A stretch of DNA of 64,000 nucleotides from an uncultured Acidimicrobiaceae bacterium (GTDB lineage: Bacteria > Actinomycetota > Acidimicrobiia > Acidimicrobiales > Palsa-688). The notes beneath the pieces were generated by a model. It saw only the letters and a program-made list of their open reading frames with translations. It had not been told where the DNA came from and searched no databases. Each line of letters opens with the position of its first letter. The stretch's first letter is position 1. Location: contig CAWHFG010000005.1 in the NCBI GenBank assembly GCA_963828435.1, forward strand, positions 746,604 to 810,603, written 5' to 3'. A program made the position numbers and the translations under genes. Positions 11,387 through 51,295 of the stretch are shown in pieces.

Positions 11387-11430
11387 GTGCCTTTACCGCC
11401 AGGGGAGCCTTTTGCCAATGGGGGCCACTT

Positions 11431-21237: not shown

Positions 21238-21291
21238 GCACAGCACAATTATCGTTCAGTGAATTCGATTCCACGAGGAGAAAAAACAGGC

Positions 21292-22611: not shown

Positions 22612-22630
22612 GGACGGAGAGATTGGTAAC

Positions 22631-23398: not shown

Positions 23399-23586
23399 CC
23401 CGCCGCCCTGGCGCCCCGGCGACGGGCGACCACCCTGATTCAGCGCCGGCGTGGACAGACGGAAGGAGAGCGGTCGGAGAAGGTTCAGGCTACTGTACCC
23501 GGCGTGAGGACGTCGCGAACGGGCTCGTCAGCTGCTCGCCCCCGACGCCACCCGGCCATCGTCCTACTCCTGAGAGGGACTTCGAA

Positions 23587-24768
23587 ATGATCGATGACAC
23601 CGTTCCGGTTACCTCGCTGCACACCCATACCGGCGAGGGCGAGATGCTGTCGACCCTCGAGTTTGTGGACAGCCTCCGCGACCAGCACAACTTCTACTGG
23701 AGCGACCATGGTTGGTGGGTGCTCACCGAGATGGACGAGATACGTGAAGCCATGCAACGACCCGACATCTTTTCCAACCGTCTCGGCGGCGTCATCGACC
23801 CGAATCCGGACTACCTCTGGATTCCCGAGATGCTGGACCCGCCGGAACACACCAAATGGCGTCAACTCCTGGCCCCGGTCTTCTCTCCGGGACGGATGTC
23901 GCAGCTGGAAGACAAGGTTCGCCATCAGGCCGCGGCGTTGATCGACAGCATCGCCAACTCCGGTGGGTGTGACTTCAAAAGGGACTTCGCCGAACCCTAT
24001 CCGTGCACCATCTTCATGGAGCTCATGGGTCTGCCCCTCGAAGAGAGCAAGCAGTTCATGGATTGGGAGAACGCCATCCTGAATATGCCGGTCAGCGAGG
24101 ACCCGGATCACTCGATTTCCACGACCGCAATCCGCGACGTCATGCAGTACTTCTCCGATCTCATCGACGAACGTCGGGCATCTCCGCGGGATGATCTGGT
24201 GTCGACCGCGTTGACCTGGAAGATTGACGGCGTTCCAGTTGCAAGCGAGGATCTGCTCTCGCTGTGCTTGCTGATGTTTATGGCGGGACTTGATACCGTG
24301 ACCTGCCAGCTGGGTTGGGCGTTTTGGCATTTCGCCACCCACCCCGAGGATCGTCAACGAATCGTGGCTGATCCCGGCCTCGTTCCCGGTGCGATCGAGG
24401 AAATCCTCCGCGTGTATACGATTGTCCGGCCTGGCCGCAAGCTGACACGTGACATCGACTTCCACGGTTGTCCCATGAAGCAGGGCGACGTCCTACTTCT
24501 TCCCCTTAGCTCCGCCTGCCGTGATCCGAAAGCGTTCGCTGACCCTGATGAGGTGGTCATCGAGCGCCCGACAAACAACCACATTGCGTTCGGAGCAGGA
24601 CCGCACCGATGCGTCGGGTCGCACCTGGCCCGCCGGGAACTTCGCATCGCAGTCGAAGAGTGGCACAAGCGAATTCCCGACTACCGGATCCCCGAAGGGG
24701 TGGCGATTCACGAGTTCGGCGGCTCGCAGCTGGCGGTGGCCGATCTGCCGCTCGTCTGGGGCTCGTAA
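23587..24768 (+). CDS. cytochrome P450 (paralogue of 20020..21237)
   Basis: FGAGPHRCVGSHLARRE and FMAGLDTV. Long blocks are shared with the first P450, for example LCLLMFMAGLDTVT.QLG..F.H.ATHPEDR.RIV.DP. Confidence 0.9.
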   Translation: MIDDTVPVTSLHTHTGEGEMLSTLEFVDSLRDQHNFYWSDHGWWVLTEMDEIREAMQRPDIFSNRLGGVIDPNPDYLWIPEMLDPPEHTKWRQLLAPVFSPGRMSQLEDKVRHQAAALIDSIANSGGCDFKRDFAEPYPCTIFMELMGLPLEESKQFMDWENAILNMPVSEDPDHSISTTAIRDVMQYFSDLIDERRASPRDDLVSTALTWKIDGVPVASEDLLSLCLLMFMAGLDTVTCQLGWAFWHFATHPEDRQRIVADPGLVPGAIEEILRVYTIVRPGRKLTRDIDFHGCPMKQGDVLLLPLSSACRDPKAFADPDEVVIERPTNNHIAFGAGPHRCVGSHLARRELRIAVEEWHKRIPDYRIPEGVAIHEFGGSQLAVADLPLVWGS

Positions 24769-26615: not shown

Positions 26616-28112
26616 CTAGAGCTGGGTGCAGACGGCCTTGACCTCGGTGTACGCCTCGAGGGCCTCATGGCCCATCTCCCGCCCCCAGCCCGACTGCTTG
26701 TAGCCGCCGAACGGCAGAGCCGCGTCGAAGATGTTGTAGCAGTTGATCCACACCGTACCGGCCCGCAGTCGCTTCGCCATGGCGTGGGCCTTGGAGACGT
26801 CCTTGGTCCACACTCCAGCTCCCAGGCCGTAGACGGAGTCATTGGCAACCGCGGCGATCTCATCCAGGGTCTGGAAGGGCTCGGCAACCACGACCGGGCC
26901 GAAGATCTCTTCGCGAACGATCTTCATATCGGGAGTGGTCTTGGAGATGACCGTGGGCTCGACGAAGTAGCCGCGGTCGCCGACGCGGCCGCCTCCGGTG
27001 ATGACCTCCGCTCCGTCGGCCCGACCCGAGTCCAGATAGCCGCTCACCCGGCGAAGCTGCTCGTTGGACACCAGCGGGCCCATCTGGGTATCAGCCGCGA
27101 AGCCATCGCCAACCTTGATGCCTTTGGCGATCTCGGCCACGCCTTCGACCACCTCGTCGAAGCGGTCCCGCTCCACGTAAAGGCGAGATCCGGCCACGCA
27201 ACACTGGCCGTGATTGAAGAAGATGGCGTTGGCGGCGCCAGCGACCGACGCCTCGGGGTCGGCGTCGGCGAATACCACGTTGGGGCTCTTGCCACCGAGC
27301 TCCAGGGTGACTTTCTTGAGGTTGCCGGCCGCGGCTTGCACGATCATCTTGCCGACCTCGGTCGAGCCGGTGAACGCCACCTTGTCCACCCCGTCGTGGG
27401 CGGCCAGTGGGGCTCCGGCGTCTTCGCCGAAGCCGGTTACCACGTTGACCACCCCGTCGGGAATCCCGGCCTCCTGGATCAGCCGAGCCAGCAGCAGGGC
27501 CGACAGGGAGCGTCTGCTCGGCCGGCTTCAGAACCACGCAGTTGCCCGTGGCCAAAGCCGGGCCGAGCTTCCACGCTGCCATCAGCAACGGGAAGTTCCA
27601 GGGGATGATCTGGCCGACCACACCGACGGGCTCCCGCAGGGTGTAGGCGTGGAACTGGGCCCCCGGGGCGTACGGGACGGAGATATCAATGGTGTTGCCT
27701 TCGATCTTGGTGGCCCAACCTGCCATGTAGTGAAACAGGTCGGCAGCCAGCGGGAACGTCGGCAGCCCGAGCGATCGGAGAGCGGCTTGCCGTTGTCGAG
27801 CGACTCCAGCTGGGCCAGCTCCTCGAGGTGTTCGAGGATGAGGTCACCGATCTTCCACACCAGTCGACCCCGCTCGGACGGAGTCATGCGACTCCAGGGG
27901 CCGCTCTCGAACGCCGCCCGGGCCGCCCGGACGGCCCGGTCGATGTCTTCCGGACCGCCAGCCGCGATCGATGCCAGCTTCTCCCCGGTGGCCGGGTTGG
28001 GGGTGTCGAACGTCTCTCCTGACACGGCGTCCACCCAGGTACCACCGATGAACAGCTGATGGGCCGACGTGGTGAACTGCTCGACCTCCCGGTCCACGAC
28101 GACAGCGCTCAT
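26616..28112 (-). pseudogene. NAD(P)-dependent aldehyde dehydrogenase split by two frameshifts
   Basis: ATG 28112: MSAVVVDREVEQFTTSAHQLFIGGTWVDAVSGETFDTPNPATGE...LDNGKPLS. A shift near 27775 leads to [23 protein letters not shown]...[34 protein letters not shown] shift near 27505-27513 leads to [26 protein letters not shown]...[11 protein letters not shown]...[10 protein letters not shown]...PFGGYKQSGWGRE, with the stop at 26616. Confidence 0.8.
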
Positions 28113-28159
28113 GGTGTCACCCCCAGCGGTGAAGGGCCCGCGGCTCCAACCGCGGGCCA

Positions 28160-28191
28160 GGCTCATCGGCTAGTCGGCTCATCGGCTAGTC
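28160..28191. repeat. perfect tandem duplication, 16 bp x2 (GGCTCATCGGCTAGTC)
   Basis: Read directly from the sequence. It lies in the divergent region between the broken ALDH gene and the PadR gene. Confidence 0.95.
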
Positions 28192-31830: not shown

Positions 31831-34473
31831 GTGTTCAAGGTGGCGCCGAGGTCGACCTATCGCGTCCAACTTCATGCCGGCTTCGACTTCGATGATGCGG
31901 CCCGCATCGTCGGGTACCTCGCGGACCTGGGTATCAGCCACCTCTATTGCTCCCCGTACCTCCAGGCGATCGCCGGAAGTACGCACGGATACGACGTGGC
32001 AGACCCCACCACCATCAATGCCGAGTTGGGGGGGCCAGCCGGGCGGGCCCGGCTGGTTGAGGCTCTCCAGGTCGCGGGCATGAGCCACATTCTGGATATC
32101 GTGCCCAACCACATGGCGGCCGATCCTGCCAACCCGTGGTGGTGGGATGTATTGGAAAAGGGCCCGGGAAGCCGCTACGCCCGCTTCTTCGACATCGACT
32201 GGACGGGTCCAGACGGGACGGCCGGCTTCAGGGTGTTGGTCCCCATCCTGGCAGACCAGTACGGTCGGGTGCTCGAGGCCGGGGAGCTGGGCGTGGAGCG
32301 CGACGGAGGAAACTTTCGGGTCCGTTACCACGATGAGTTCCTGCCGTTGTCGGCGACGTCTCTGGGGGAGCTGCTCGGCTCGGCTGCCCAGCGAGCCGGT
32401 GACATGGAGCTGGCCGCCGTGGCCCGAGGCTTCGCCGCCACGCCTCCCGCGGTGACGGACGACCCGGTGGTAGCCGGCGACCGCGACGACCGTGCTCGTC
32501 GGCTTTCGGCTGATCTGGCCCGCCTGCTGGCCGGGAATCAACAAATGGTGCAGGCCATCGACGAGGAGCTGAGCGCCCTCAGTGCGGATGTGGATCGACT
32601 CGATGAGCTGCTGCGCCACCAGAACTATCGATTGGCGTATTGGCGCACCGCCAGCGAGGAGCTCGACTACCGGCGCTTCTTCAATATCGAGACCCTGGTG
32701 GGCGTCAGGATCGAGGATCCGGACGTTTTCGCAGCCACCCATCAGCTCGTGATCAACCTGGTGCGAGATGGCAGCATCGATGGCCTGCGGATCGATCACA
32801 TTGACGGGCTGCGCGACCCCGAGGGCTACCTCATCGCCCTCGCCGAGGAGTGCGGCGGCGTGTACACGGTAGCCGAAAAGGTCCTCGACTACGAGGAGGC
32901 ACTCCCCGCCACCTGGCTCGTAGCCGGCACCTCCGGCTACGACTTCCTCAACCGGGCGAACAACCTGTTCGTGGCGACCCGTCACGAGCACGCCATGTCC
33001 GCGTGCTATGCCGAGTTCACCGGTGAGTCGGCCAGCTTCGACGAAATCGCCTACCTGGCCAAGCAACAAATCATGAGCGAAGACCTTCGTGTGGAGCTGG
33101 AGCACCTGGTCCGCCTGCTGGCCCAGATTTGCGAAGGGTTTCGCCGCCATCGGGACCATACCCGCCGGCACCTGCGCGACACTCTCCGGGAAGTGGTGGC
33201 CCGCTTTCCCGTCTACCGCACGTATGTGGAGGCGCGGCGGCCATCTGGTGAAGCCGACCGAGCTCACGTGGCGGCGGCGGTCGCTACCGCTCAGGCCTCC
33301 CGGCCTGATCTCGACGCCGAGCTGATCGACTTCATCGGCCAGCTGGCGCTCGGGCTCATGGCTGGCAATCAGGGCATGGAGTTCGCCCAACGGCTCCAGC
33401 AGTTCACGGGCCCGGTCATGGCCAAAGGCGTCGAGGACACCGCTTTTTATCGCTATAACCGCCTGCTGTCCCTGAATGAAGTCGGCGGCAATCCCGCCGT
33501 CTTCGGCCGTCCCGTGGAGAGCTTTCACGCCGACACGGCCCTGATGGCAGCGCACTGGCCGGAGGCGATGCTGACTCTCTCCACCCACGACACCAAACGG
33601 AGCGCCGACGTCCGGGCCCGGCTCAACGTGCTCTCCGAGGTGCCGACGCCGTGGGCCAACGCGGTAGCCCGGTGGGGCGAGATCAACGACCGGCACCGTC
33701 GCGGCCACTGGCCCGACCGCAACGCGGAGTACCTTCTGTACCAGACGCTGGTAGGGGCCTGGCCGGTCGACGCGACGCGGGCGACGGCCTTCATGACGAA
33801 GGCCACGAAGGAAGCCAAGGAGCACACGTCCTGGGTTGATCCGGTCGCCGAATACGACCGGGCCGTGTCGGGGTTCGTCGGCTCGATCCTTGCCGACGAG
33901 GTTTTCGTCGCCGACCTGACCCGGTTCCTGATCGGCCAGCGGGTCGTGGGGCGAGGGCGCCGCAACTCCCTGGCCCAGACCACCCTGGCCCTCACCTGCC
34001 CTGGTGTACCCGATATCTATCAGGGAACCGAAACCTGGGATCTGAGCCTTGTCGATCCCGACAACCGCCGACCGGTGGACTACGACCTGCGCCGTGGGCT
34101 CCTGGCCGGCATGCGCTTTGGTCGTTCCGTCGACGTCGTCGGGACCGCCGACGAGGGCCACCCGAAGCTCTGGCTCATTCACGCCCTGCTGCAGGACCGC
34201 CGGCGCCGACCCGAGCTCTACCTCTCCAGCAGCTACGAGCCCCTCACGTTTCGCGGGGCGCGTGCAGACGATCTCGTCGGGTTCAGCCGGGGCGCCCTGG
34301 CCGTGGTGGTGCCGCGGCTGGGTGGCGACCGCTGGGAAGAGACCGCGGTCCAGCTACCGGCAGGACGATGGACGGACGTGCTGACCGGGGCCGACCACGA
34401 CGGCGGCCGACAGGCTCTCGATCGGCTGTTTCCTCTCTTTCCGGTGGCCATCCTGGCCCGCAGCAACGGATGA
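31831..34473 (+). CDS. treY: malto-oligosyltrehalose synthase
   Basis: N-terminus STYRVQLHAGFDFDDAARIVGYLADLGISHLYCSPYLQA..GSTHGYDV, then DIVPNHMA and RIDHIDGLRDP. Confidence 0.85.
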   Translation: MFKVAPRSTYRVQLHAGFDFDDAARIVGYLADLGISHLYCSPYLQAIAGSTHGYDVADPTTINAELGGPAGRARLVEALQVAGMSHILDIVPNHMAADPANPWWWDVLEKGPGSRYARFFDIDWTGPDGTAGFRVLVPILADQYGRVLEAGELGVERDGGNFRVRYHDEFLPLSATSLGELLGSAAQRAGDMELAAVARGFAATPPAVTDDPVVAGDRDDRARRLSADLARLLAGNQQMVQAIDEELSALSADVDRLDELLRHQNYRLAYWRTASEELDYRRFFNIETLVGVRIEDPDVFAATHQLVINLVRDGSIDGLRIDHIDGLRDPEGYLIALAEECGGVYTVAEKVLDYEEALPATWLVAGTSGYDFLNRANNLFVATRHEHAMSACYAEFTGESASFDEIAYLAKQQIMSEDLRVELEHLVRLLAQICEGFRRHRDHTRRHLRDTLREVVARFPVYRTYVEARRPSGEADRAHVAAAVATAQASRPDLDAELIDFIGQLALGLMAGNQGMEFAQRLQQFTGPVMAKGVEDTAFYRYNRLLSLNEVGGNPAVFGRPVESFHADTALMAAHWPEAMLTLSTHDTKRSADVRARLNVLSEVPTPWANAVARWGEINDRHRRGHWPDRNAEYLLYQTLVGAWPVDATRATAFMTKATKEAKEHTSWVDPVAEYDRAVSGFVGSILADEVFVADLTRFLIGQRVVGRGRRNSLAQTTLALTCPGVPDIYQGTETWDLSLVDPDNRRPVDYDLRRGLLAGMRFGRSVDVVGTADEGHPKLWLIHALLQDRRRRPELYLSSSYEPLTFRGARADDLVGFSRGALAVVVPRLGGDRWEETAVQLPAGRWTDVLTGADHDGGRQALDRLFPLFPVAILARSNG

Positions 34474-36209
34474 TGCACCGGTTCGCCGTCTGGGCCCCCC
34501 GGGCGGAACGGGTCGAACTGCGGCTCGACCAGCGCACCCTGGCCATGAAGTCGTTCCCGGATGGATGGTGGCGGCTATCGGTTCGGGAGGCCCGGGCTGG
34601 CACCCGCTACGGATTCTGCCTTGACGGTCGCCAGGCCCGGCCAGACCCTCGTTCCGCCTCTCAGCCTGAGGGGATCGACGGACTGTCGCAGATCGTGGAC
34701 CACGACGCCTTTCCTTGGTCCGATCGCGCTTGGCGGGGCGTCTCGTGGCGCGGCCTGGTGCTTTATGAGCTGCACATCGGCACCTTCACTGCCGCCGGCA
34801 CCTTCGACGCCGCCATCGACCGCCTGGGCCATCTGGTCAGTCTCGGCGTCGGCGCCATCGAACTGCTTCCCGTGGCGGAGTTCTCCGGGGCCAGGGGATG
34901 GGGCTACGACGGAGTCGATCTGTTTGCCGCTCATCACAGCTACGGGGGTCCCGAAGCCCTCAAGCGGCTGATCGACGCGTGCCACGCGGCCGGGATAGGC
35001 GTGGTGATTGACGCCGTGTACAACCACCTCGGACCGGCAGGGAACTACCTGGACGAGTTCGGCCCGTATTTCTCCGACCGACACCGAACCAACTGGGGTG
35101 CGGCGGTGAACTTTGACGGACCGGGCAGCTATGAGGTCCGCCGGTTCGTCTTCGATAACGCCCTCATGTGGCTGCGGGATTACCATGCCGACGGGGTGCG
35201 GCTGGATGCGGTCCACGCCATTGTCGACAACTCCGCGTATCACATCCTGGAGGAGCTCGCCGAAGAAGTCGACGTGCTCGCTACCCAACTGGGCCGGCCG
35301 CTCTTCCTCATTGCGGAGAGCGATCTCAATGATCCCCGTTTCGTACGCAGCCGGGCGGCCGGCGGGTATGGACTCGACGCGGCATGGGCCGACGAGTGGC
35401 ATCATGCCTTGCACGCCAGCCTCACCGGAGATCGCCAGGGCTACTACGAAGACTTCGGACCGTTGTCACTGCTGGCCAAGGGTCTGCGCCAGGCCTGGGT
35501 CTACGACGGCACATGGTCACCCTATCGGCAGCGCCGACACGGCCGCCCTCCGGTCGGACTGACCGGTTCGCAGTTCGTGGTGTTCACCCAGAACCACGAC
35601 CAGGTCGGGAATCGGGCCCTGGGCGAGCGAAGCAGCGCCCTCATGAGCCACGGACGACTGAAGGTCGCGGCCGCCCTGTTGCTCACCGGCCCCTTTACCC
35701 CGATGCTCTTCCAGGGTGAGGAGTGGGGGGCGAGCTCACCATTTCAGTACTTCACCGACCATCGCGACCCCGGGCTGGCCCGGGCCGTGAGCCAGGGCCG
35801 GCGCCACGAGTTTGCCGATTTCGGCTGGGATCCGCAGGACATACCCGATCCCCAGGATCTCTCGACCTTCCAGAGATCCCGGCTCAACTGGGACGAGATC
35901 GAACGCCCTCCACACTCAGATCTCCTGCCCTGGTACCGCCAGCTGATCGAGCTTCGACGGACGAAACCAGGCCTGAGCGATCCGCGGCTGGACCGCATCA
36001 AAGTCGAGGTACACGAGACGTCCGCCGCCCTGGTCGTCCGGCGCCCTGGCTTCTGCATCCTGGCGAACCTCGGTCCGGAGGACCACTGTTTCTCCCGTCC
36101 ATCCGGAGCGGCGATTCTCGCCGCGTCCAACCCGGTGGGCGCCGACGGCGGCGGCTCACTGGTTGTTCCCCCTGACGCAGTAGCGATCATCGAGGGGCCT
36201 GATGCCTGA
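34470..36209 (+). CDS. treZ: malto-oligosyltrehalose trehalohydrolase
   Basis: ATG 34470 overlaps the treY stop. GH13 regions VIDAVYNHLGP, DGVRLDAVHAI and LIAESDLND are present, plus NHDQVGNR. Confidence 0.85.
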   Translation: MMHRFAVWAPRAERVELRLDQRTLAMKSFPDGWWRLSVREARAGTRYGFCLDGRQARPDPRSASQPEGIDGLSQIVDHDAFPWSDRAWRGVSWRGLVLYELHIGTFTAAGTFDAAIDRLGHLVSLGVGAIELLPVAEFSGARGWGYDGVDLFAAHHSYGGPEALKRLIDACHAAGIGVVIDAVYNHLGPAGNYLDEFGPYFSDRHRTNWGAAVNFDGPGSYEVRRFVFDNALMWLRDYHADGVRLDAVHAIVDNSAYHILEELAEEVDVLATQLGRPLFLIAESDLNDPRFVRSRAAGGYGLDAAWADEWHHALHASLTGDRQGYYEDFGPLSLLAKGLRQAWVYDGTWSPYRQRRHGRPPVGLTGSQFVVFTQNHDQVGNRALGERSSALMSHGRLKVAAALLLTGPFTPMLFQGEEWGASSPFQYFTDHRDPGLARAVSQGRRHEFADFGWDPQDIPDPQDLSTFQRSRLNWDEIERPPHSDLLPWYRQLIELRRTKPGLSDPRLDRIKVEVHETSAALVVRRPGFCILANLGPEDHCFSRPSGAAILAASNPVGADGGGSLVVPPDAVAIIEGPDA

Positions 36210-36302
36210 AGGCTTCGGGGTCGGTGTCCGCCACGACGCCCGGCGCGGCCGGATTGGCGATCAATGCTGTCAGGGCCACCAACAACCCGAGCCGGCGACG
36301 TG

Positions 36303-38390
36303 ATGGACGACATCGACGCCTGGCCCGGGCGGCCCTATCCGCTTGGCGCCACCTACGATGGAGCGGGCACCAACTTCGCCCTTTTCTCCGAGATCGCCGA
36401 TGCCGTCGAGCTGTGCCTCTTCGACGACGATGGCCACCAGACCACGTTGGCTCTGGAAGAGGTGGACGCCTTTGTCTGGCACACTTATCTGCCCAACACC
36501 GGGCCGGGTCAACGCTACGGGTACCGGGTGCACGGACCCTGGGATCCCGGCGCCGGTCGTCGCTGCAATCCGGCCAAGCTCCTCCTGGATCCGTACGCCA
36601 AAGCCGTCGACGGTGAGGTCGATTGGGACCAGGCCTGCTTCTCCTACGACTTTGGTGACGAGTACTCCCGCAATGACGACGACAGCGCCCCGCATCTGCC
36701 CAAGGCCGTGGTCCACAATCCTTATTTCGACTGGGGCAACGATCGAACTCTCGCCACACCTCTCCATGAGACCGTGATCTACGAGACGCACGTCAAAGGA
36801 TTCACCGCTCGCCATCCGGACCTTCCCGAGGCCCTCCGGGGAACCTACGCCGGTTTCGGCCATCCCGTCTCCATTGACCACCTGACCCAACTCGGGATTA
36901 CGGCGGTGGAGCTGATGCCCGTCCACCAGTTCATCCACGATGCCCATCTCCTGGAACGGGGCTTGCGCAACTACTGGGGATACAACACGATCGGGTTCTT
37001 TGCTCCGCACAATGGGTACGCGTCGCGGGGTCGAGGTGAGCAGGTCCAGGAGTTCAAGGCCATGGTCCGTTCCCTCCATGCCGCCGGCATCGAAGTCATC
37101 CTCGACGTGGTGTACAACCATACCGCCGAGGGCAATCACCTGGGACCGACCCTGTCCTTCAAGGGCATCGACAACCAGGCCTATTACCGCCTGGTGCCCG
37201 ACGACCCGGGCCATTACTACGACACCACGGGCACGGGTAATAGCTTCAATGTCCGCCACCCCCGGAGTTTGCAGCTGATCATGGACTCGCTGCGCTACTG
37301 GGTGGGAGAAATGCACGTGGACGGGTTCCGGTTCGATCTGGCCGCCACTCTCGCCCGTCAATTTCACGAGGTGGACAGGCTGTCGGCGTTCTTTGATCTC
37401 ATTCAGCAGGACCCCGTCGTCAGCCAGGTCAAGCTCATCGCGGAGCCGTGGGATCTGGGCGAGGGTGGTTACCAGGTGGGCAACTTTCCCCCGGTCTGGT
37501 CCGAATGGAACGGTCGCTACCGGGATACTGTCCGGGACTTCTGGCGGGGAGAGCCGGCCACGCTGTCAGAGTTCGCTTCCCGGATCACCGGCAGCTCCGA
37601 CCTCTACGAGGCCGATGCCCGCCGCCCCGTCGCCAGCATCAACTTCGTCACCGCTCACGACGGCTTCACCCTCGCCGACCTGGTTTCGTACCACGAGAGG
37701 CATAACGAGGGCAACGGAGAGGACAACAACGACGGGGAGAGCTACAACCGATCCTGGAACTGCGGGGTGGAAGGACCGACTGAAGATCCCTCGGTGCTCG
37801 GATGCAGACGCCGCCAGCAACGCAACTTCCTCACCACTCTCTTGCTGTCCCAGGGTGTACCCATGCTGCTCGGCGGCGACGAGCTTGGGCGCACCCAGGA
37901 CGGCAACAACAACGCCTATGGTCAGGACAATGAGCTGTCATGGTACGATTGGGGCGGCATCGATACATCCCTTCTCGCCTTTACCCGTGAAGTCATCAAG
38001 CTGCGCCGGGACCACCCCGTCTTCCGGCGCCGCCGCTGGTTTCGGGGCCGGCCCATCCGGGGCAGCGTGGACATCAGCTGGTTACGCCCCGATGGGCAAC
38101 AGATGGACGACGCGGATTGGGAGATCAGCCTGGCGCGATCGGTCGGCGTGCTGCTCAACGGCGGAGGAATCACCGAACGGGACCAACGCGGGCGGGCGGT
38201 TACCGATGACTCCTTTTTGCTCCTATTTAATGGGCATGAGGATAAAGTCGATTGGACACTACCGATCGGGTGGGCCGACGTGTGGCACGTCCTGGTCGAC
38301 ACCGGCGGCCTTCTCCAGGATACGGAAGTCGACGGGGAGAAGATCATCGTCGGGACCGACAGCATTGTTCTGCTGCGTGCTGTGCAGTAA
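36303..38390 (+). CDS. glgX: glycogen debranching enzyme GlgX (TreX-type)
   Basis: [48 protein letters not shown] and [10 protein letters not shown]. Confidence 0.9.
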
Positions 38391-38591
38391 TCCGCCTTTT
38401 GCAGCCATCAGCCAACAGAACGCCACGGCTGGGAGAGGACAGCCCGGTACCCCTCCCACCCGGTCACCCTTCGTCGACCGCACCCTGGGCAGTCTGGGGG
38501 CTCTGACGGCCCTGGTCACCATCGGATCCCGGGGGTTTACGGCCGGCGCCCGCGGGGAAGAATTCAGGTAGACGACCTGCTGCGAACGACA

Positions 38592-38873
38592 ATGACAGAA
38601 CATCCTTTGCGTGGTGGCGATGACGCCGCAAATCCAGCCGATGAGCAGTCTCCGCCGCCCGCGGATGCTGGGTTTTTGCCGCCCGCTCCGCCGCGAGCGA
38701 CCGCCGAATCGGTCGTTGTCCGGCTCATCGCCACGACAGGAGTCATAGGGATCGGGACCGCCGTGGGGGCCATTCTGGCTGCCAGCGACGTCGCCGGCTG
38801 GGTCACAGGCTTGGTCGTCTCAGCTCTGAGCGTGATTCTCGCGGCTCTGCTCTGGCGGTCCCGGAGGCTGTGA
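38592..38873 (+). CDS. small membrane protein (two predicted TM helices), hypothetical
   Basis: 93 aa with a Pro/Ala-rich N-terminus, followed by VVVRLIATTGVIGIGTAVGAILAASDVAGWVTGLVVSALSVILAALLW. Its 3' end overlaps the sulfatase ORF tail by about 70 nt. Confidence 0.4.
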   Translation: MTEHPLRGGDDAANPADEQSPPPADAGFLPPAPPRATAESVVVRLIATTGVIGIGTAVGAILAASDVAGWVTGLVVSALSVILAALLWRSRRL

Positions 38874-40233
38874 TCTCCCGCACCGACGCCTGGTGCGCAA
38901 ATGAAGATCTGGACAGCCCGGAGTTGGACGCGGGTGTGGTGGGGTCGCTGGCGGAGCGCTGCTCGGGGGTATTGTAGAGGGTGTCTGGGGCCGGCGGGAC
39001 GGCGCCGTCAAGCAGAGGATCCCCGGTCCGGAGCATCCAGTCGTGGAGCCGGCGTTTCAAGTCCAGCACCACGTTGGCCAGGGCAGGGTCGTCGATCCGG
39101 TTGCGGCCTTCCCCGGGATCCAGCCACAGGTCATAGAGCGCTTCCGACGGCTGGTCGAGGTCGGCCCACCCGCAGGCGAGCATCACCTCCTTGGTCAGGC
39201 CGTCGTCGAGATTGGCAAGAACCCGGCCGGGGTGTTCATCGTCGAAGCGCCTGGCGTACTTGTACCGGGCTGTCCGCACGGCCCGCTGGGGCTCGTAGGC
39301 GGCGTGATAGGTGACCTCGGCGAACACCTCCTGGTGCAGCTCCTCGACCTCGCCCCGCACCAGCGGGGTGAGGGACACGCCTTCCAACCAGTCGGGCGGG
39401 TCGATCCCGGCCAGCTCGCATATGGTCGGGTAGAGGTCCAGCTGGGTCACCAGGGCGTCGTACACCCGGCCCCGCTCGAAACCGCCTGGACCACGCACGA
39501 TCAGCATGACTCCGATACCCCGGTCGTACATGGTGGCCTTGGCATCGGGAAAGGCGAGGCCGTGATCCGTAGTAAGGATCACCAGCGTGTTGCCGACCAT
39601 TCCGTTCTCTTCCAGAGCGTTGAGTACCGCGCCCACCCCTTGATCCAGAGACCGGGCGCTGGCCTTGAAGGAGGCCATGTCCCGCCGGGTCATCGCCGTA
39701 TCGACGATGTTGTCGGGCGGGCGGGAGTACAGGGCGTCGCGCACCGAAGAGGGCTCGAAGTACTCACGGTGGGTCTCAAAGAACCCCACCGAGAGGAACC
39801 AGGGTGGGGCCCCGAGGGCTCGATCGGCGATGAGGCGGCAGGCCGCCGGGGCCACGTCACGCACCGTGGTGCTGTCGAGGTCGACCACCTGGTCATAGCC
39901 GAGATCGGCCGGATGGCCCGAAACGTGCTGCTCGCCGATCAGACCTGTCCAGTACCCCGCGGCGCGCAGCACAGGCGCGAGGTGACGCTCCGGGTGACGA
40001 AGGCGGTAGCCACGGTGGGCCAGGCCCAGCATCCCGCTGGCGTGGCTGCTCTGACCGGTCAGCAGGGCGGCCCGCGAGCCCGAGCAGACCGGTGCGGCAC
40101 AGAAAGCCTGGCGGAACAGGACCCCCTGGTCGGCCAGGTGCTGGATGTTCGGGGTCGGGACGGGGTAGCCGTAGGGCTGAACGTAGCGCCCCGTGTCGTG
40201 GGAGTGAAGGTAGACGATGTTGGGCGGGGTCAT
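38803..40233 (-). CDS. sulfatase-family hydrolase with non-canonical nucleophile motif C-S-G-S-R
   Basis: NIVYLHSHDTGRY..., APVCSGSRAALLTGQ, TTDHGLAFPDAKATMYDRG. The C-terminal ~50 aa are low-complexity and may be over-extended. Confidence 0.8.
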   Translation of the reverse strand: MTPPNIVYLHSHDTGRYVQPYGYPVPTPNIQHLADQGVLFRQAFCAAPVCSGSRAALLTGQSSHASGMLGLAHRGYRLRHPERHLAPVLRAAGYWTGLIGEQHVSGHPADLGYDQVVDLDSTTVRDVAPAACRLIADRALGAPPWFLSVGFFETHREYFEPSSVRDALYSRPPDNIVDTAMTRRDMASFKASARSLDQGVGAVLNALEENGMVGNTLVILTTDHGLAFPDAKATMYDRGIGVMLIVRGPGGFERGRVYDALVTQLDLYPTICELAGIDPPDWLEGVSLTPLVRGEVEELHQEVFAEVTYHAAYEPQRAVRTARYKYARRFDDEHPGRVLANLDDGLTKEVMLACGWADLDQPSEALYDLWLDPGEGRNRIDDPALANVVLDLKRRLHDWMLRTGDPLLDGAVPPAPDTLYNTPEQRSASDPTTPASNSGLSRSSFAHQASVREITASGTARAEPRESRSELRRPSL

Positions 40234-40287
40234 CGTCCCCTACTTTAGGTCGCTTGTTCTCTACTTTTACGATAAGACTTGTGTGGT

Positions 40288-41112
40288 ATGACGGACGCCT
40301 ACCCTTGTACGGAAGGTCTCGCTTACTTTGTCTGTGCCACCCAGCGCAGTGGCAGCACGCTGCTGTGCGAACTGCTCAAAGGGACCGAAGTAGCAGGAGT
40401 GCCAGACGAATTCTTCGAAGCGCTCCGCTCGTCCGGTCTACCCCGCCAGCCCCGACAGTACTTCGGGGACCCGGCAGTCGCCGACATCGCGGCCCGCCTC
40501 GGCCCCGGCGAGCCCGGTCGGCCCGAACAGGCCGGCGCCTTCCAGGGCTGGTTCACCTACGCCCTCCAGCGGGGCACGTCCCCGAACGGCGTCTTCGCCA
40601 CCAAGATGATGTGGAACTACTTTGACGACTTCCGCAACCGGGTCCGGGAGCTGCCCGGCCTCGGCGACATCACCTTCAACCAGGCCCTCGACATCCTCTT
40701 TCCCCAGCTCCGCATCGTGTTCGTCCGCCGGCGCGACAAGGTGGCCCAGGCCGTGTCACTGTGGAAGGCTATCCAGACCCAGCAATGGCGCAACGAGGCC
40801 GAACCGTCGCCCGAAGAGCTCCCGGCCGAGTACCACTACCGGGCCCTGAAGCATCTCGTCAACGAACTGCACCGCTGGGACGCCCGCTGGGAGGACTGGT
40901 TCCACGCCACCGGCCGCCAACCGATCCGGGTCATCTACGAGGAGTTCGTCCACGCTCGAGCCGCCACCGTCGGTCGCGTCCTGGACGCCCTGGAAATCGA
41001 CCCCCCCGAGCTGGGGGGCCGCGGCTCCATGAAACGCCAGGCTGATGACCTCTCCGAAGACTGGGTCTCCCGATTCCGCCACGACGACGCCGAGCATCAG
41101 TTCACGGCCTGA
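40288..41112 (+). CDS. stf0: Stf0-type sulfotransferase (trehalose 2-sulfotransferase family)
   Basis: ATG 40288. The N-terminal PAPS-loop-like region is YFVCATQRSGSTLLCELLKGTEVAGVPDEFF. Further Stf0-like blocks follow: NGVFATKMMWNYF, IVFVRRRDKVAQAVSLWKAIQTQQW, VIYEEF. Confidence 0.7.
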   Translation: MTDAYPCTEGLAYFVCATQRSGSTLLCELLKGTEVAGVPDEFFEALRSSGLPRQPRQYFGDPAVADIAARLGPGEPGRPEQAGAFQGWFTYALQRGTSPNGVFATKMMWNYFDDFRNRVRELPGLGDITFNQALDILFPQLRIVFVRRRDKVAQAVSLWKAIQTQQWRNEAEPSPEELPAEYHYRALKHLVNELHRWDARWEDWFHATGRQPIRVIYEEFVHARAATVGRVLDALEIDPPELGGRGSMKRQADDLSEDWVSRFRHDDAEHQFTA

Positions 41113-41230: not shown

Positions 41231-42667
41231 TCACGTTACCAGGCTGGGGCCGGGCGCCGGGTGCATGGGGGTTGGCGCTGGTAGTCCGAGGTGATCTCGT
41301 AACGTGGCACCGCGGTAGTCGGCGCGAAATACCCCTCTTTCCTGTAGCAGGGGAACGACCCGATCAACGAATGGCTCCAGTCCGGTCGGGGTGATATGCG
41401 GAACGAGAATGAAGCCGTCGCTGGCATTCGCCTGTACCAGATCGTTGATCTCGGCCGCGATGGTCGCGGCAGAGCCGATAAAGCTCTGTCGGGCGGTCAC
41501 TGCGATCATCAATTGCCGTATGGACAGATGTTCGGCCCAGGCTCGGTCCCGCCAGTCTCGGGCGGTGGCCACCGGGTCACGGTACATACGCACGCTGGCC
41601 CGGCCCCGGGCTACCGCATTCTCGCCCGGCCGGGGATCGAAATCGGGCAAGGGTCCATCCGGATCGTATGCGGAGAGGTCGCAGTTCCAAACCTGTTCGA
41701 GGAAACGAATGGCAGTCTGGCCGCTGACTTGCTGCAAGCGGACCTGGTGGGCGAGGTCGTGAGCCTCGTCGTCGGTGTCGCCGAGCACGAAGGTGGCGGC
41801 AGGCAAGATCAGCAGCTGTTCGGGTTGCCGACCATATCGGCCGAGTCGCCCCTTTATGTCATTGTAAAAGGAACGTCCGGCGTCGAGGGTGGCGTGGCGG
41901 CTGAAAATGGCATCGGCGCTCGCCGCCGCGAACTCCCGCCCTTCGTTGGAGTCGCCCGCCTGGAAGATGACCGGACGACCTTGCGGACTGCGGGGCAGGT
42001 TGAACTGGCCCTCGATATCGAAGTGGGCGTCGTGGTGGGCGAAACGGCCCGCGTGGGGGTCGGCCAGGAAGCGACCGCCCGCCTGGTCCGCAACAACCTC
42101 ACCCTCTGGCCAGGAGTCGAGCAGCCCGCAGACCGCCCGGAGGAAGGTCGCGGCCCGCTCATAGCGGTCATCCTCGGCAAGGAACGCGCCACGGCGAAAG
42201 TTCTCCCCTGTGAAGGCATCCCAGGATGTGACAACATTCCAGGCGGCCCGACCGGCGGAGAGGTGGTCCAGGGTGGCGAACTGGCGGGCCACCTCGTACG
42301 GCTCGTTAAAAGTGGAGTTGATGGTGCCGGCCAGTCCGAGGTGTTCGGTCACTGCCGCCAGGGCCGCCAGCACGGTGAAGGTGTCGGGACGGCCGACCAC
42401 GTCCAGGTCGTAGATCAGACCGTTCTGCTCTCTCAGGCGGAGTCCCTCGGCCAGGAAGAGGAAGTCGAACTTTCCCCGCTCAGCTATCCGGGCGAAGCGG
42501 GCGAAAGAGTCGAAGTCGATATGACTGCCGGACTCTGGATCACTCCACACGGTGGTGTTGTTAACACCAGGAAAATGGGCAGCGAGGTGTATTTGCTTCT
42601 TCGGCCGGTCCACGTTGCGGTTCCCTTCACGAACGCCGGAGTGTGTGACAGTCGACTGTGTCCCCAT
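41231..42667 (-). CDS. LLM-class flavin-dependent monooxygenase (NtaA/SnaA/DszA-like family)
   Basis: KKQIHLAAHFPGVNNTTVWSDP...FDFLFLAEGLRL...TINSTFNEPYEVARQFATLDHLSAGRAAWNVVTS. The start is ATG 42667 or GTG 42673. Confidence 0.8.
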   Translation of the reverse strand: MGTQSTVTHSGVREGNRNVDRPKKQIHLAAHFPGVNNTTVWSDPESGSHIDFDSFARFARIAERGKFDFLFLAEGLRLREQNGLIYDLDVVGRPDTFTVLAALAAVTEHLGLAGTINSTFNEPYEVARQFATLDHLSAGRAAWNVVTSWDAFTGENFRRGAFLAEDDRYERAATFLRAVCGLLDSWPEGEVVADQAGGRFLADPHAGRFAHHDAHFDIEGQFNLPRSPQGRPVIFQAGDSNEGREFAAASADAIFSRHATLDAGRSFYNDIKGRLGRYGRQPEQLLILPAATFVLGDTDDEAHDLAHQVRLQQVSGQTAIRFLEQVWNCDLSAYDPDGPLPDFDPRPGENAVARGRASVRMYRDPVATARDWRDRAWAEHLSIRQLMIAVTARQSFIGSAATIAAEINDLVQANASDGFILVPHITPTGLEPFVDRVVPLLQERGVFRADYRGATLRDHLGLPAPTPMHPAPGPSLVT

Positions 42668-43285
42668 GGTCACAGGAGGTTGGCCTCATATCCAGTTCGA
42701 TACGAACCCGATTGCCAACAATCCATCCGCCTGACGGGAGGGCGAGGTTGAAGTCCATAGCCACATACCGTCGAGGTCGCGAGAGGGCAACGAAGGTCGT
42801 GGTCGTGGGGTCGCTCACCGTCGGATCCTTTCACGAACTCGGTCTGCAGGCCCCTCCAACGTAACTCATGTCCGGTCTTGGGCTCCGCGGGGTGCGAGGT
42901 CAACCGTGTCCGCTACTCCTTTCCGCCCTGTCGTTCACTGGCCAACGCCTTGACAGTACTCTCCTATTCCCATAAGTCTGATGCAGTGACTAAACTTTCT
43001 GCCAGCGCACCTGCAAGACCGCACGGCGCGAGCGACCCGGACCCGCCATGAGTGACCATCCCCAAGTCTGCTGGGCAATCCGTCGCCCGTTTGTGTCCAC
43101 CTGCCGGCCTGACCGTTGCAGTTGCAACCATGTGCCTGGCCCCCTGCAGTTGGACCGGTTCTCACCGGTCCTCGAAGCCCAGGACTGGCGTGACCTGACC
43201 TGGCTGCGGTGCCGCCAGCCGGAGGGCGGGCGGATCGGGTTCGTGCTCCAGCATGCCCTCACCTGGTTGGATGCCCGGCGGCGGG

Positions 43286-43321: not shown

Positions 43322-43433
43322 ATATCGCCCCGGTCCTGCGCCGCCACCTTGCCGACCCTTCGCGGGAGTGGGGCCCTGTCACCGCCCAACCCGCCGTTTG
43401 CGTTCCCGAGTGATCCGAGTGGAGGAGTAGATC

Positions 43434-44615
43434 ATGGCCGCCGTTCCCCTGGCCGTTCTCGACCTTATCCCGGTTTCCTCGGGATCCAACCCCAGCCAGG
43501 CTCTGCGCAATACTGTCGACCTGGCCCGACAGAGCGAACGGTTCGGGTACACGCGCTATTGGTTCGCCGAGCACCATCTGAACCCGGGGGTCATCGGCGT
43601 CGCCCCTTCCGTGGCCATCTCTCTGATCGCCGGCGTCACCTCCGCCATCCGCCTGGGCTCCGCCGGGGTCCAGATCGGCCACCGCACCCCCCTCTCGGTC
43701 GTCGAGGAGTTTGGTCTGATCGATGCCCTCTACCCGGGGCGGCTCGACCTGGGCATCGGCCGCTCCATCGGCCGTCCGGCGCCGACCCCCGAGGGACCTG
43801 AGCCCGGACTGGCCGCCTCGGCGGCCGCCGCCAGCTATCGGGCCCGGGGCGGCGGTGGCGCCCACACCGTCGAGGAGCACACCGACAACGGACTCCTTCT
43901 CCCCAAACGTTTTGATTTCACCAAGCTGGCCGGATCGCCCCGCCTGGCGCTCAGCCTGTCCCTCCTGCAACAACCCAACGCCTACACCCCGCCCTACGAC
44001 GAACAGATCAGCGACCTGCTCGACCTGCTCAAGGGCACCTACCGATCCGCCGATGGTCTTGAAGCCCACGCCTACCCGGGGGAAGGCGCCAACCTGGAGG
44101 TCTGGATCCTGGGCGCCTCCGGCGGCGAGAGCGCTCAGGTAGCTGGCGCCCACGGTCTGCCCTTCGCCGCCTCTTACCATCACAGCCCCAGCACCGTGCT
44201 CGACGCGGTCGACGCCTATCGAGCCGCCTTCCAACCGTCGGACGTGTTGGACCAACCGTACGTCTCCGTGTCCGCCGATGTGGTCGCGGCCCCAGATGAC
44301 GACACGGCCAACTGGTTGGCGTCAGGATACGGGCTTTGGGTTCGCAGCATCCGCTCCGGTACGGGCGCTATCCCGTTCCCCACCCCCGAAGAGGCCTCGG
44401 CCCACCAGTGGAGCGACGAAGATCGGGCCCTGGTGAAGGACCGCATCGACACCCAGTTGGTCGGCTCCCCCCGAACCGTGACGGACCGGCTTGACCAGCT
44501 CCAGCAGGCCACCGGAGCCGACGAGCTCGCCATTACCACCATTGCGCATCAACACGCAGATCGGGTTCGCTCCTACCAGCTCCTGGCCCACGAGTGGCAG
44601 CGGCGGCATCCGTAG
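43434..44615 (+). CDS. LLM-class flavin-dependent oxidoreductase (luciferase family group 1-like)
   Basis: PLAVLDLIPVSSGSNPSQALRNTVDLARQSERFGYTRYWFAEHHLNPGV...RLGSAGVQIGHRTPLSVVEEF. Confidence 0.75.
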   Translation: MAAVPLAVLDLIPVSSGSNPSQALRNTVDLARQSERFGYTRYWFAEHHLNPGVIGVAPSVAISLIAGVTSAIRLGSAGVQIGHRTPLSVVEEFGLIDALYPGRLDLGIGRSIGRPAPTPEGPEPGLAASAAAASYRARGGGGAHTVEEHTDNGLLLPKRFDFTKLAGSPRLALSLSLLQQPNAYTPPYDEQISDLLDLLKGTYRSADGLEAHAYPGEGANLEVWILGASGGESAQVAGAHGLPFAASYHHSPSTVLDAVDAYRAAFQPSDVLDQPYVSVSADVVAAPDDDTANWLASGYGLWVRSIRSGTGAIPFPTPEEASAHQWSDEDRALVKDRIDTQLVGSPRTVTDRLDQLQQATGADELAITTIAHQHADRVRSYQLLAHEWQRRHP

Positions 44616-44639
44616 TCGACAACAGAAAGAGCGTCTCTC

Positions 44640-45837
44640 ATGGCCAAATCCACGCCCTTGCACCTGGCGGCCGCTCTCGACGGCGCCGGGTGGCATCCCG
44701 CCGCTTGGCGCGAGCCGTCGGCGCGCCCCGCCGAGCTGTTCACCCCCCGCTATTGGGTCGACCTGGTCGCCGAAGCAGAGAGAGGCCTGCTCGACTTCGT
44801 CACCGTCGAGGACTCCCTCGGCCAGCAGTCCTCCCACTTCGACGGCCCCGACGGCCGCACCGACCAAGTCAGAGGTCGCCTGGACGCGGTGCTGATCGCG
44901 GCCCGCGTCGCGCCGGTCACTACCCATGTCGGACTCATCCCCACCGCCACGGTCACCCACACCGAGCCATTCCACATCTCCAAGGCCATCGCCACCCTCG
45001 ATTACATCAGCAACGGCCGGGCCGGTTGGCGGGTGCAGCTGTCCCGCCCCGCTGAAAACGCCCACTTCGGACGCCGCCCGCAAGCGTTTCCCCTCGAGGA
45101 CTATCCGGGTCGCGTACCGCAAGACGTCATGTCGGCACGCTTCGACGAAGCCGCCGACTTCGTCGAAGTGGTCCGACGGCTCTGGGACAGCTGGGAAGAC
45201 GACGCCGAAATCCGCGACGCCGCAACGGGCCGTTTCATCGACCGGAACAAGCTCCACTACATCAACTTCCAGGGCCGGTGGTTCAATGTCAAAGGACCGT
45301 CAATCACGCCCGCGCCCACCACAAGGGCAGCCGCCGGTCACCGCCCTCGCCCACGCCAGCATCCCCTACCGCTTCGCCGCCCAGGCCGCCGATATCGTTT
45401 ATATCACTCCGACTGACGCCGACCACGCCGCGGCGATCGTCGGCGAGATCCGCGCCGAACAAGTGGCGGCCGGTCGAAGCCGCGACACCGTACACGTGTT
45501 CGCAGACCTCGTCATCTTCATGGACGATAGCCGCGGCCAAGCCGAGGATCGCAAGGCGCGCCTGGACGATCTGGACGGCACCACCTACCAAAGCGATGCT
45601 CTGACCTTCATGGGGACTCCAACCGAGCTTGGCGATTTGTGCGAGGAATGGCAGCAGGCCGGCATCTCGGGATTCCGGTTGCGGCCAGGCGCCATACCGC
45701 ACGACCTGGAAAGAATTGCTCGAGACCTGATCCCGGAACTGCAGCGCCGGCAGATGTTCCGCCATCACTACCAGGCTGGTTCCCTCCGAGCCCGACTGGG
45801 TTTGGCCTACCCCGCCAACCGCTATGCCCCCACCTAG
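44640..45837 (+). pseudogene. LLM-class flavin monooxygenase (NtaA/DszA-like) with one frameshift near 45305
   Basis: Frame 1 reads MAKSTPLHLAAALDGAGWHPAAW...FVTVEDSL...TEPFHISKAIATLDYISNGRAGWRV...FNVKGPSITP. Frame 2 continues RPPQGQPPVTALAHASIPYRFAAQAADIVYI... to the stop at 45837. Confidence 0.7.
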
Positions 45838-47251: not shown

Positions 47252-48187
47252 CTACCCGCTGCTGCTGCGCCCGGACCGGCGGTACGCGACAAAGGGCGCG
47301 GCGCGCTGGATCCGACCCGGTAGTGCTGCTGGCCGGTCTCGAAGGGCCTGCTGGGCTTGTTCGGCTGGAGCGCCGAACCGCAGGAGCCGGCCGCCGAAGG
47401 CGATGGAACAGATGGCGAACCACGCCCACCCGAAGGCCAGACCCGCCAGCACATCAGTGAGCCAGTGCACCCCCAGGAAGACCCGGCTGGACGCGATGCC
47501 GACGGCGAGCGCCACGGCGATGCCGGCGAGGATCGCCTTGGCCCGCGAGGACCGGCCGATTCCGGCCAGGAGGGCGAAGGCCGCGAAGGACGCCGCGGAG
47601 GCGGCCGCGTGACCGGAAGGAAAGGAAGGGCCGCTGAAGCCGGTGAGCCGATCGATGTCCGGACGGGTTCGATCGACGATCCACTTGATCAGGTCAACGA
47701 CCGCGAACTGGCCACCGACGGTCAGGGCAAGGAAGCAGGCCACGGCGGGGAGGCGCTCCCGTCGCACCACGGCGACGCACATTACGGCCGCGAAGGGCCC
47801 GAGGAAGGCGGCCCCGCCCAACACGGAGAGATCGCGTAGCACCCGCGTGGACGCCGGGCTCGCATGGGCGGCCGCGAAGCGGGCTGCGCTGAGGTCGAAC
47901 CGAGCGAAGCCGATGTTGGTGCGGATCATCCACACCAGCAGGCCGAAGGCTACGACCCCGGCTACCAGCAGGATGAGGCCGGCCGTGAGGGCCAGCCCGG
48001 TAGTGGAGTTCGGGTCCAGACGAGAATCAACCAGGGCCGCGGCGCGGGGATGCCGGCGTACTTCACCCCGGATGTGCTCCGGCTTCACCCGGGGCGCCAG
48101 CTGAAATGCGGTCCAGCGGTGCGCCGCCAGCCAGACCGAAGTCCCGGTGACCGCCATGAGGGCCGCCGTGATGCCAATAATCAGCAT
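47252..48187 (-). CDS. PAP2-family lipid phosphate phosphatase
   Basis: All three PAP2 motifs are present: KWIVDRTRP, PSGH and SRVFLGVHWLTD. The protein has multiple TM helices. Confidence 0.8.
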   Translation of the reverse strand: MLIIGITAALMAVTGTSVWLAAHRWTAFQLAPRVKPEHIRGEVRRHPRAAALVDSRLDPNSTTGLALTAGLILLVAGVVAFGLLVWMIRTNIGFARFDLSAARFAAAHASPASTRVLRDLSVLGGAAFLGPFAAVMCVAVVRRERLPAVACFLALTVGGQFAVVDLIKWIVDRTRPDIDRLTGFSGPSFPSGHAAASAASFAAFALLAGIGRSSRAKAILAGIAVALAVGIASSRVFLGVHWLTDVLAGLAFGWAWFAICSIAFGGRLLRFGAPAEQAQQALRDRPAALPGRIQRAAPFVAYRRSGRSSSG

Positions 48188-48224
48188 GGGGACGTCTGGC
48201 GGCGTCTACGTTGGCTGGTTCCGG

Positions 48225-51189: not shown

Positions 51190-51295
51190 GAGATACCCGT
51201 CCTGCCAGTGCGGCAAACCGTGGCGGTTGTCCGCGGCGGGGAGGTGAATCTGCTGCGCATCGGAGGGGTCGAGGTCGGGTAGGTAGGCACAGGTG

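Follow-up and report, generated by a model that had tools for sequence, protein, structure and literature searches.

A conserved sulfatase–stf0 gene pair in Acidimicrobiia as a candidate module for adding and removing sulfate on a small carbohydrate

What is known of Stf0 concerns almost exclusively its role at the first step in the synthesis of sulfolipid-1, a virulence lipid of Mycobacterium tuberculosis, and the characterized homolog sulfates trehalose (1TEX; PMC10638397, PMC2676004). In M. tuberculosis, its gene (Rv0295c) adjoins atsG (Rv0296c) (PMC4734655, PMC13174468). The M. abscessus genes for AtsG, Stf0, and CysC are MAB_1547c, MAB_1546c, and MAB_1544c, respectively (PMC13174468). AtsG is known only as an "arylsulfatase" without a natural substrate: this activity has been reported for the M. 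tuberculosis protein, for which neither a physiological substrate nor a part in acquiring sulfate was stated to be known (PMC4734655). No characterization of a joint function of the mycobacterial atsG–stf0 pair was found in the searchable literature. Here, we analyzed a stretch of 64,000 bp, referred to as the window, from an uncultured Acidimicrobiaceae bacterium (assembly GCA_963828435.1, contig CAWHFG010000005.1, positions 746,604 to 810,603). It harbors a gene for an AtsG-type sulfatase next to a gene for an Stf0-family sulfotransferase, a pair which, judged by its signature residues and clade structure, is a distant counterpart of atsG–stf0. Both genes lie beside an operon for trehalose synthesis (Table 1). 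The original prediction, made from the letters of the window without database searches, had assigned identities and coordinates to all five genes, which profile scores and matches to Pfam, NCBIfam, and 1TEX bore out. The divergence of the sulfatase and sulfotransferase genes across 54 bp was confirmed as well.

The window pair resembles its mycobacterial counterpart in that an Stf0-family gene stands beside a gene for a type I sulfatase without signal sequence, in the HxHD/CSxSR/xQH/DH/K signature of this sulfatase, and in a clade structure that is the same for both genes. The synteny of a Mycobacteroides locus compared here (L083) agrees with the published gene numbering of M. abscessus (PMC13174468). 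There are also clear differences. The mycobacterial genes are arranged in tandem, whereas those of the window are divergent; the mycobacterial sulfatase motif is CSPSR, whereas it is CSGSR in the window, where no cysD–cysNC genes follow the pair. The identity between the two systems is only approximately 37% for Stf0 and 33 to 36% for the sulfatase, and the window Stf0 scores below the equivalog cutoff for trehalose 2-sulfotransferase.

Compared with sulfolipid-1 biosynthesis in M. tuberculosis, the locus encodes a first enzyme of the same type, a carbohydrate sulfotransferase dependent on 3'-phosphoadenosine 5'-phosphosulfate (PAPS), with the same PAPS motifs and Glu residue. Genes of the pks2/fadD23, papA1/papA2, mmpL8, chp1, and sap types were found neither among the approximately 55 open reading frames (ORFs) of the window scanned against Pfam nor in the flanks of the pairs most closely related to it (group A, below). 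The absence from the window of sulfolipid acylation and export genes (polyketide synthase, PapA type, and MmpL), which the original prediction had noted, was thus upheld, and a lipid end product is not indicated.

Haloalkaliphilic archaea use free 2-sulfotrehalose as an osmolyte (Desmarais et al. 1997, reviewed in PMC1224877). This sets a precedent for free trehalose 2-sulfate as an anionic solute of the cytoplasm rather than a lipid precursor, albeit in another domain of life and with biosynthetic enzymes that are not identified in reviews (PMC1224877, PMC3403918). The archaeal osmolyte comes from haloalkaliphiles, whereas the relatives of the window pair are largely metagenome bins from soil and peat, not from hypersaline habitats. 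We know of no link between archaeal 2-sulfotrehalose and the sulfatase–stf0 pair. Among solved structures, the S1_8-family sulfatases and SGSH, which act on sulfated sugars, are the best matches of the window sulfatase, which contains the SGSH_C domain. However, the similarity is low (best E = 2e-37), metal- and sulfate-binding positions of the window sulfatase are altered (HxHD and EQH), and its predicted location is cytoplasmic. Genes that make and break storage compounds are often adjacent and coregulated, as is the case for polyphosphate (ppk–ppx). With regard to the sulfatase–stf0 pair this is an analogy only, with other chemistry and no homology.

Table 1. Coordinates of the sulfatase–stf0 pair, the trehalose synthesis genes, and the adjacent monooxygenase genes in the window
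Feature	Position	Strand	Evidence
AtsG-type sulfatase, predicted type I (formylglycine), 476 amino acids	38803-40233	-	PF00884, E = 8.5e-39; PF16347 (SGSH_C)
Divergent intergenic region, candidate control region	40234-40287		54 bp between the two start codons
Stf0-family PAPS-dependent sulfotransferase, 274 amino acids	40288-41112	+	PF09037, E = 3.2e-58, full profile
treY, malto-oligosyltrehalose synthase	31831-34473	+	915.7 bits on TIGR02401 (cutoff, 498.65)
treZ, malto-oligosyltrehalose trehalohydrolase	34470-36209	+	738.9 bits on TIGR02402 (cutoff, 538.8)
glgX, glycogen debranching enzyme	36264-38390	+	1009.2 bits on TIGR02100 (cutoff, 640.9)
Luciferase-like flavin mononucleotide (FMN) monooxygenase, NtaA/DmoA family	41231-42673	-	401 bits on TIGR03860
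Luciferase-like FMN monooxygenase	43431-44615	+	PF00296
Luciferase-like FMN monooxygenase	44616-45416	+	PF00296

Conservation and common descent of the pair

The original prediction had treated the sulfatase and stf0 genes as a unit, and their adjacency in related genomes had been preset as a test of this claim. Gene neighborhoods were compared across the 80 best genomic loci with an Stf0 alignment, represented by one genome per species, and 11 further loci that were added by exact look-ups of close homologs, giving a total of 91. The closest relatives of both proteins occurred in bins named Acidimicrobiaceae, Ilumatobacteraceae, Microthrixaceae, and Acidimicrobiia. Group A (L001 to L027) comprises loci from Acidimicrobiia, some Thermoleophilia bins, and one Dormibacterota bin, with an Stf0 that is 59 to 83% identical to the window protein. 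In all 27 of these loci, the sulfatase gene is located directly upstream of stf0 in divergent orientation, mostly across a gap of 42 to 83 bp; one locus is cut by a contig end, and in three (L025 to L027) both genes are frameshifted. The divergent pair was present in six of six further look-ups, five of which derived from sulfatase matches and one from the closest Stf0 relative. The flanks of the group A pairs are unrelated between loci. No Pfam family occurred more than four times in 114 flanking genes, and a third conserved gene was detected neither by clustering of the flanking genes nor by Pfam recurrence.

The pair extends to more distant relatives. All nine loci of group B, from Solirubrobacterales, contain both genes, with an Stf0 approximately 38% and a sulfatase approximately 60% identical to the window proteins, in three different layouts: sulfatase-Stf0 tandem, Stf0-sulfatase tandem, and divergent. 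Group C consists of Mycobacteriales loci from the genera Mycobacterium, Mycolicibacterium, Mycobacteroides, Rhodococcus, and Williamsia. Here, the sulfatase gene is situated just upstream of stf0 on the same strand in 29 of 48 loci. On the preset test, the claim that the two genes form a unit therefore stood. Their adjacency is far beyond chance and has been kept in dozens of genomes with unrelated flanks.

In 28 of the 48 Mycobacteriales loci, stf0 is directly followed by cysD–cysNC, encoding sulfate adenylyltransferase and adenosine 5'-phosphosulfate kinase for PAPS synthesis. The resulting four-gene order of sulfatase, stf0, cysD, and cysNC was observed in many of them (L037 to L083; for example, L040:10001-13553 and L083:8566-13577). 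The position of cysD–cysNC beside the mycobacterial pair ties it to PAPS-dependent sulfation. This link was not found in the loci of group A, in those of Solirubrobacterales, or in the window, for which a tblastn search was negative.

A common origin of these pairs is reflected in both proteins. The sulfatases of the three clades have one derived active-site signature, composed of HxHD, CS[G/A/P]SR, [E/M]QH, DH, and K, which was present in 22 of 22 sequences of group A, 7 to 8 of 8 of group B, and all 29 of group C. It departs from that of other sulfatases at two sites. H-x-H-D is found where most sulfatases have D-D, with His in place of the first metal-binding Asp throughout the three clades, and [E/M]-Q-H is found where ARSA and SGSH have K-x-H, the Lys being replaced by Glu in the window. 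The pairwise identity of Stf0 proteins was correlated with that of the corresponding sulfatases (r = 0.91 for all loci and 0.64 for group A alone), and none of 2,000 permutations yielded a value as high in either case. Both genes split into the same three clades, and no re-assortment of partners between clades was seen, a pattern that would have argued independently for coupling.

A pair of the group A type, at approximately 70 to 76% identity, also occurs in L018, L019, and L021, from bins assigned to Solirubrobacterales, Thermoleophilaceae, and Candidatus Dormiibacterota. Other Solirubrobacterales (L028 to L035) carry a different type of Stf0, with approximately 38% identity. This distribution suggests that in these three loci the pair was either transferred horizontally as a unit or assigned to the wrong bin. 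Its occurrence in Thermoleophilia and Dormibacterota bins, combined with the lack of conserved flanks, suggests that the two genes move as a unit. Judged by these comparisons, the two genes have stayed together across Acidimicrobiia, Thermoleophilia, and Mycobacteriales and have probably been transferred jointly.

The two enzymes and the region between their genes

The window sulfotransferase covers positions 1 to 244 of the 244-position PF09037 profile, with 197.6 bits against a gathering cutoff of 22. The loop that contacts the 5'-phosphosulfate, QRSGST, is invariant in the alignment of Stf0-family proteins of all clades. The same is true of E41, equivalent to E36 in the M. smegmatis Stf0 structure 1TEX, a residue which we take to be the catalytic one. 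Against this M. smegmatis protein, the window sulfotransferase yielded an E value of 1.3e-47. Its 3'-phosphate motif, R148/V156/S157/W159, is invariant across clades as well and corresponds to R143/V151/S152/W154 of the M. smegmatis enzyme (PMC10638397). Since the PAPS-binding motifs and the equivalent of Glu36 are kept, its assignment as a PAPS-dependent sulfotransferase is well supported by sequence. The ratio of nonsynonymous to synonymous substitution rates (dN/dS) of approximately 0.1 indicates purifying selection.

The sulfatase reached 134 bits on PF00884, for which the cutoff is 25. The solved structures closest to it are those of S1_8-family sulfatases (9bb9; E = 2e-37) and human SGSH (4mhx; E = 2e-31). 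In the sulfatases encoded next to stf0, Cys50, Arg54, Asp223-His224, and Lys232 are invariant. The motif around the cysteine is CSGSR, with Gly at the position where the classical C/S-x-P/A-x-R has Pro or Ala. This version occurs in 22 of 22 sulfatases of group A, whereas CSPSR occurs in 29 of 29 of group C, and a G or A variant is found in Solirubrobacterales. The sulfatase gene is under purifying selection (dN/dS of 0.10 to 0.17; 0.07 to 0.17 overall for both genes of the pair). Automated names of its homologs, such as "N-sulfoglucosamine sulfohydrolase", reflect annotation transfer and are not evidence. SGSH takes sulfate off position 2 of an alpha-gluco-configured sugar. This chemistry parallels the site that is sulfated in trehalose 2-sulfate; we regard the parallel as suggestive, not as a test.

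Inspection of the N termini revealed no signal sequence in the window sulfotransferase, in the window sulfatase, or in the Stf0-adjacent sulfatases of all three groups. Judged by eye in this way, both proteins of the pair would be cytoplasmic.

The last 20 to 30 residues or so of the window sulfatase are not conserved in its homologs, which typically have 453 amino acids. An ORF of 93 codons with a hydrophobic C-terminal half (38592-38873, plus strand) overlaps the 3' end of the sulfatase gene by 71 bp. It had no match in Pfam and no tblastn match in the related loci, and its G+C content by codon position was indecisive. Either this small ORF or the overlapped tail of the sulfatase may be spurious.

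The intergenic DNA is AT-rich for a window with a G+C content of 66%. It contains a core, ATTCTCTACTAATATGATAGA, that is kept in the closest relatives, and the element can also be written as TTCTCTAC…GTAGAGAA. The palindrome of this core is perfect over 9+9 positions in L005, where it reads ATTCTCTAC-N7-GTAGAGAAT (L005:9965-9989), and over 7+7 positions in L008 (L008:4981-5001), and it is degenerate in the window. The left half-site, TTCTCTACT, is located at 40257-40268 and occurs once in the 64-kb window, compared to 0.04 copies expected. We read the element as a putative shared promoter or operator, and it may be the operator for a regulator that is not encoded beside the pair. No match to a sigma-70-type promoter or an intrinsic terminator was obtained around the sulfatase–stf0 pair, and no Rfam family matched between 28 and 47 kb of the window.

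Proposed cycle and alternative readings

We propose that the pair is a stand-alone, two-gene cytoplasmic module which adds sulfate to and removes it from a small carbohydrate, and we estimate the probability of this reading at roughly 0.5. Both genes would be transcribed divergently from the shared 54-bp control region. The sulfotransferase would esterify a small carbohydrate of the cytoplasm with sulfate from PAPS; the leading candidate, as yet unproven, is trehalose, which would be converted to trehalose 2-sulfate. The sulfatase would then strip the sulfate from the sulfated sugar and would in this way act on the product of its partner. A pool of sulfated sugar could thus be built up and drawn down by the cell, either as an anionic solute or to hold sulfur in reserve. 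In a broader version of this proposal, Stf0–AtsG would constitute a dedicated cytoplasmic cycle of reversible trehalose sulfation throughout Actinomycetota, trehalose 2-sulfate would be a regulated anionic solute or store of sulfur, AtsG would be a trehalose-2-sulfate sulfatase, and sulfolipid-1 would be a late, lineage-specific offshoot. We put this forward tentatively, as an extension which may hold but is, on balance, doubtful.

Several observations weigh against the proposed module. No sulfatase gene was found within 10 kb of stf0 in 19 of the 48 Mycobacteriales loci, so that the pairing is absent from approximately 40% of mycobacterial stf0 loci, whereas it is universal in group A. The Pro found in the classical FGE recognition motif is missing from CSGSR, and a Pfam scan of the approximately 55 window ORFs did not reveal a gene for FGE. 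In the solved S1_8A sulfatase 9bes_B, which has the sequence C-S-T-A-R, a modified residue is listed at the Cys position, indicating that maturation is possible for a sulfatase motif that has no Pro. In M. abscessus, AtsG and Stf0 were both more abundant in the same condition (PMC13174468). Such co-abundance would amount to a futile cycle unless activity is regulated or the sulfatase has another substrate. The remaining points concern the acceptor. The window Stf0 shares only approximately 37% identity with the mycobacterial protein. On NF047724, the equivalog model for trehalose 2-sulfotransferase, the window protein scored 227.5 bits against a cutoff of 400. As controls, Mycobacteriales proteins passed with 416 to 440 bits, while group A reached 227 and group B 187 to 203 bits. 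Moreover, Mycobacteriales Stf0 has 112 positions with a conservation of at least 95%, and group A differs at 55 of these while retaining 57.

It is these last two points that favor an alternative in which the design of making and breaking a sulfate ester is the same but the acceptor is another sugar, a glycolipid head group, or a small metabolite instead of trehalose. Source annotations are in line with it, since they alternate between "trehalose 2-sulfotransferase" and "LPS sulfotransferase NodH" within the window-type Stf0 clade, so that the acceptor cannot be read from the name of the family. On the other hand, many conserved Trp, Asn, Arg, and Tyr residues that lie outside the PAPS motifs are among the positions retained, and the common sulfatase signature together with the matching three-clade split argues that the pair as a whole is orthologous to the mycobacterial module. 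We consider another acceptor possible, although rather unlikely.

The main rival is a linear relay of sulfate. Here, the sulfatase would free sulfate from some other ester, imported or endogenous, and this sulfate would either be re-activated to PAPS by CysDNC for use by the sulfotransferase or enter general sulfur assimilation. Such a relay would suit the four-gene order seen in many Mycobacteriales loci, the co-abundance of AtsG and Stf0 in M. abscessus (PMC13174468), and the genes for TauD, NMT1/ABC, and luciferase-like monooxygenases that adjoin the pair in the window, L002, L006, L020, and L027. However, an enzyme for generic scavenging would have no need of lasting attachment to one particular sulfotransferase in every locus of group A while the flanks change. 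Furthermore, the sulfatase shows no signal sequence, and its surroundings contain no conserved importer dedicated to it. As for the luciferase-like monooxygenases, they are common in these genomes, and their proximity to the pair is near a rough chance expectation. Overall, we judge the relay unlikely.

A module comprising all five genes, as put forward in the original prediction, would make trehalose by means of treY–treZ–glgX and then sulfate and desulfate it. The five genes span no more than 9.3 kb, and those for trehalose synthesis are genuine, with TreY, TreZ, and GlgX each exceeding the NCBIfam equivalog cutoff and so belonging to the TreY–TreZ pathway. Translation of treZ probably begins with the ATG at 34470, whose overlap with the treY stop codon (ATGA) makes the predicted translational coupling of the two genes plausible. 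In contrast, the joining of the trehalose operon to the pair did not survive the comparison of related loci. In none of the 91 loci was a treY, treZ, or glgX gene present at a distance of up to 10 kb from Stf0, including those of relatives at 84% identity in Stf0 or the sulfatase. Searches with TreY, TreZ, GlgX, and an OtsA fragment by tblastn gave a single match, an otsA fragment approximately 8 kb from the pair in L089. With this fragment, trehalose genes neighbor the pair in two of some 33 independent contexts, which is near a rough chance estimate of approximately 0.6 (Poisson P of approximately 0.12). In addition, glgX and the sulfatase gene are convergent, with 412 bp between their 3' ends; they do not share a transcript, and operon and pair are neighbors rather than one transcription unit. 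As the pair is kept at related loci and the trehalose genes are not, the sulfatase–sulfotransferase pair is the conserved unit, and treY–treZ–glgX is a genuine trehalose synthesis operon whose position beside it is incidental. Integration of all five genes is accordingly very unlikely.

A fortuitous adjacency of sulfatase and stf0 without functional coupling, in favor of which only the general frequency of sulfatases in genomes can be cited, was rejected as wholly improbable by the conservation data, given that the pairing is kept across three classes, in three orientations, and amid unconserved flanks, and that the divergence of the two genes is correlated.

Neighboring genes and meaning of the pair

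The three luciferase-like monooxygenase genes on the stf0 side of the window (Table 1) recur as a trio beside the pair in L002 (L002:10876-14638; 58 to 77% identity). A similar trio lies approximately 4 kb from stf0 in a Mycobacterium locus (L064:7515-11079; 51 to 63% identity). On the sulfatase side of L002, there are two TauD genes and an NMT1-type ABC transporter. An association of the trio, which is of a sulfur-scavenging type, with the pair is possible but unproven. The TauD, NMT1/ABC, and luciferase-like neighbors would fit a role in sulfur economy, although this link is statistically weak and may be due to chance.

Further features of the window are located away from the pair. The aldehyde dehydrogenase gene at 26616-28166 (minus strand) is split into two ORFs, covering Pfam profile positions 1 to 87 and 165 to 461, and a CoA-transferase family III fragment at 11393-11962 (minus strand) covers positions 225 to 321 of a 366-position profile. 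Both may represent pseudogenes or else result from indel errors in a long-read assembly. The frameshifted copies of Stf0 and sulfatase in L025 to L027 resemble these split genes. A lipid-phosphate cluster at 47252-52876 encodes two PAP2 phosphatases, a BrkB-family membrane protein, a diacylglycerol-kinase-like/YegS protein, and a phospholipase-D-like protein. Its two largest ORFs overlap heavily (49187-50437 and 50071-51510), leaving gene boundaries uncertain. Two cytochrome P450 genes flank genes for a periplasmic binding protein and a TetR regulator at 19963-24768, which are unrelated to the pair.

The original prediction had also held that no paired module of this kind was characterized. 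The arrangement itself is already visible in the form of the annotated mycobacterial atsG–stf0 genes, while the claim appears correct as far as function is concerned. Literature searches, whose coverage excluded most papers in subscription journals, returned no paper on a trehalose-sulfate sulfatase, on the natural substrate of AtsG, or on Stf0 of Acidimicrobiia. Both protein families are already known. The features of the window variant are its divergent layout, the CSGSR motif, the lack of a link to cysD–cysNC, and universal pairing.

Stf0 and an AtsG-type sulfatase form one conserved unit, which is universal among the members of a large group of uncultured Acidimicrobiia from soil. As this group has no sulfolipid genes alongside the pair, the finding points to an older, lipid-independent form of sugar sulfation in actinobacteria. 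It overturns nothing. Rather, it frames as an enzymatic question what AtsG does and why Stf0 persists in actinobacteria without sulfolipid synthesis. If AtsG-type sulfatases do hydrolyze the product of Stf0, this would provide a function for the mycobacterial sulfatase and a new small-molecule cycle of sulfur or solute in abundant soil bacteria.

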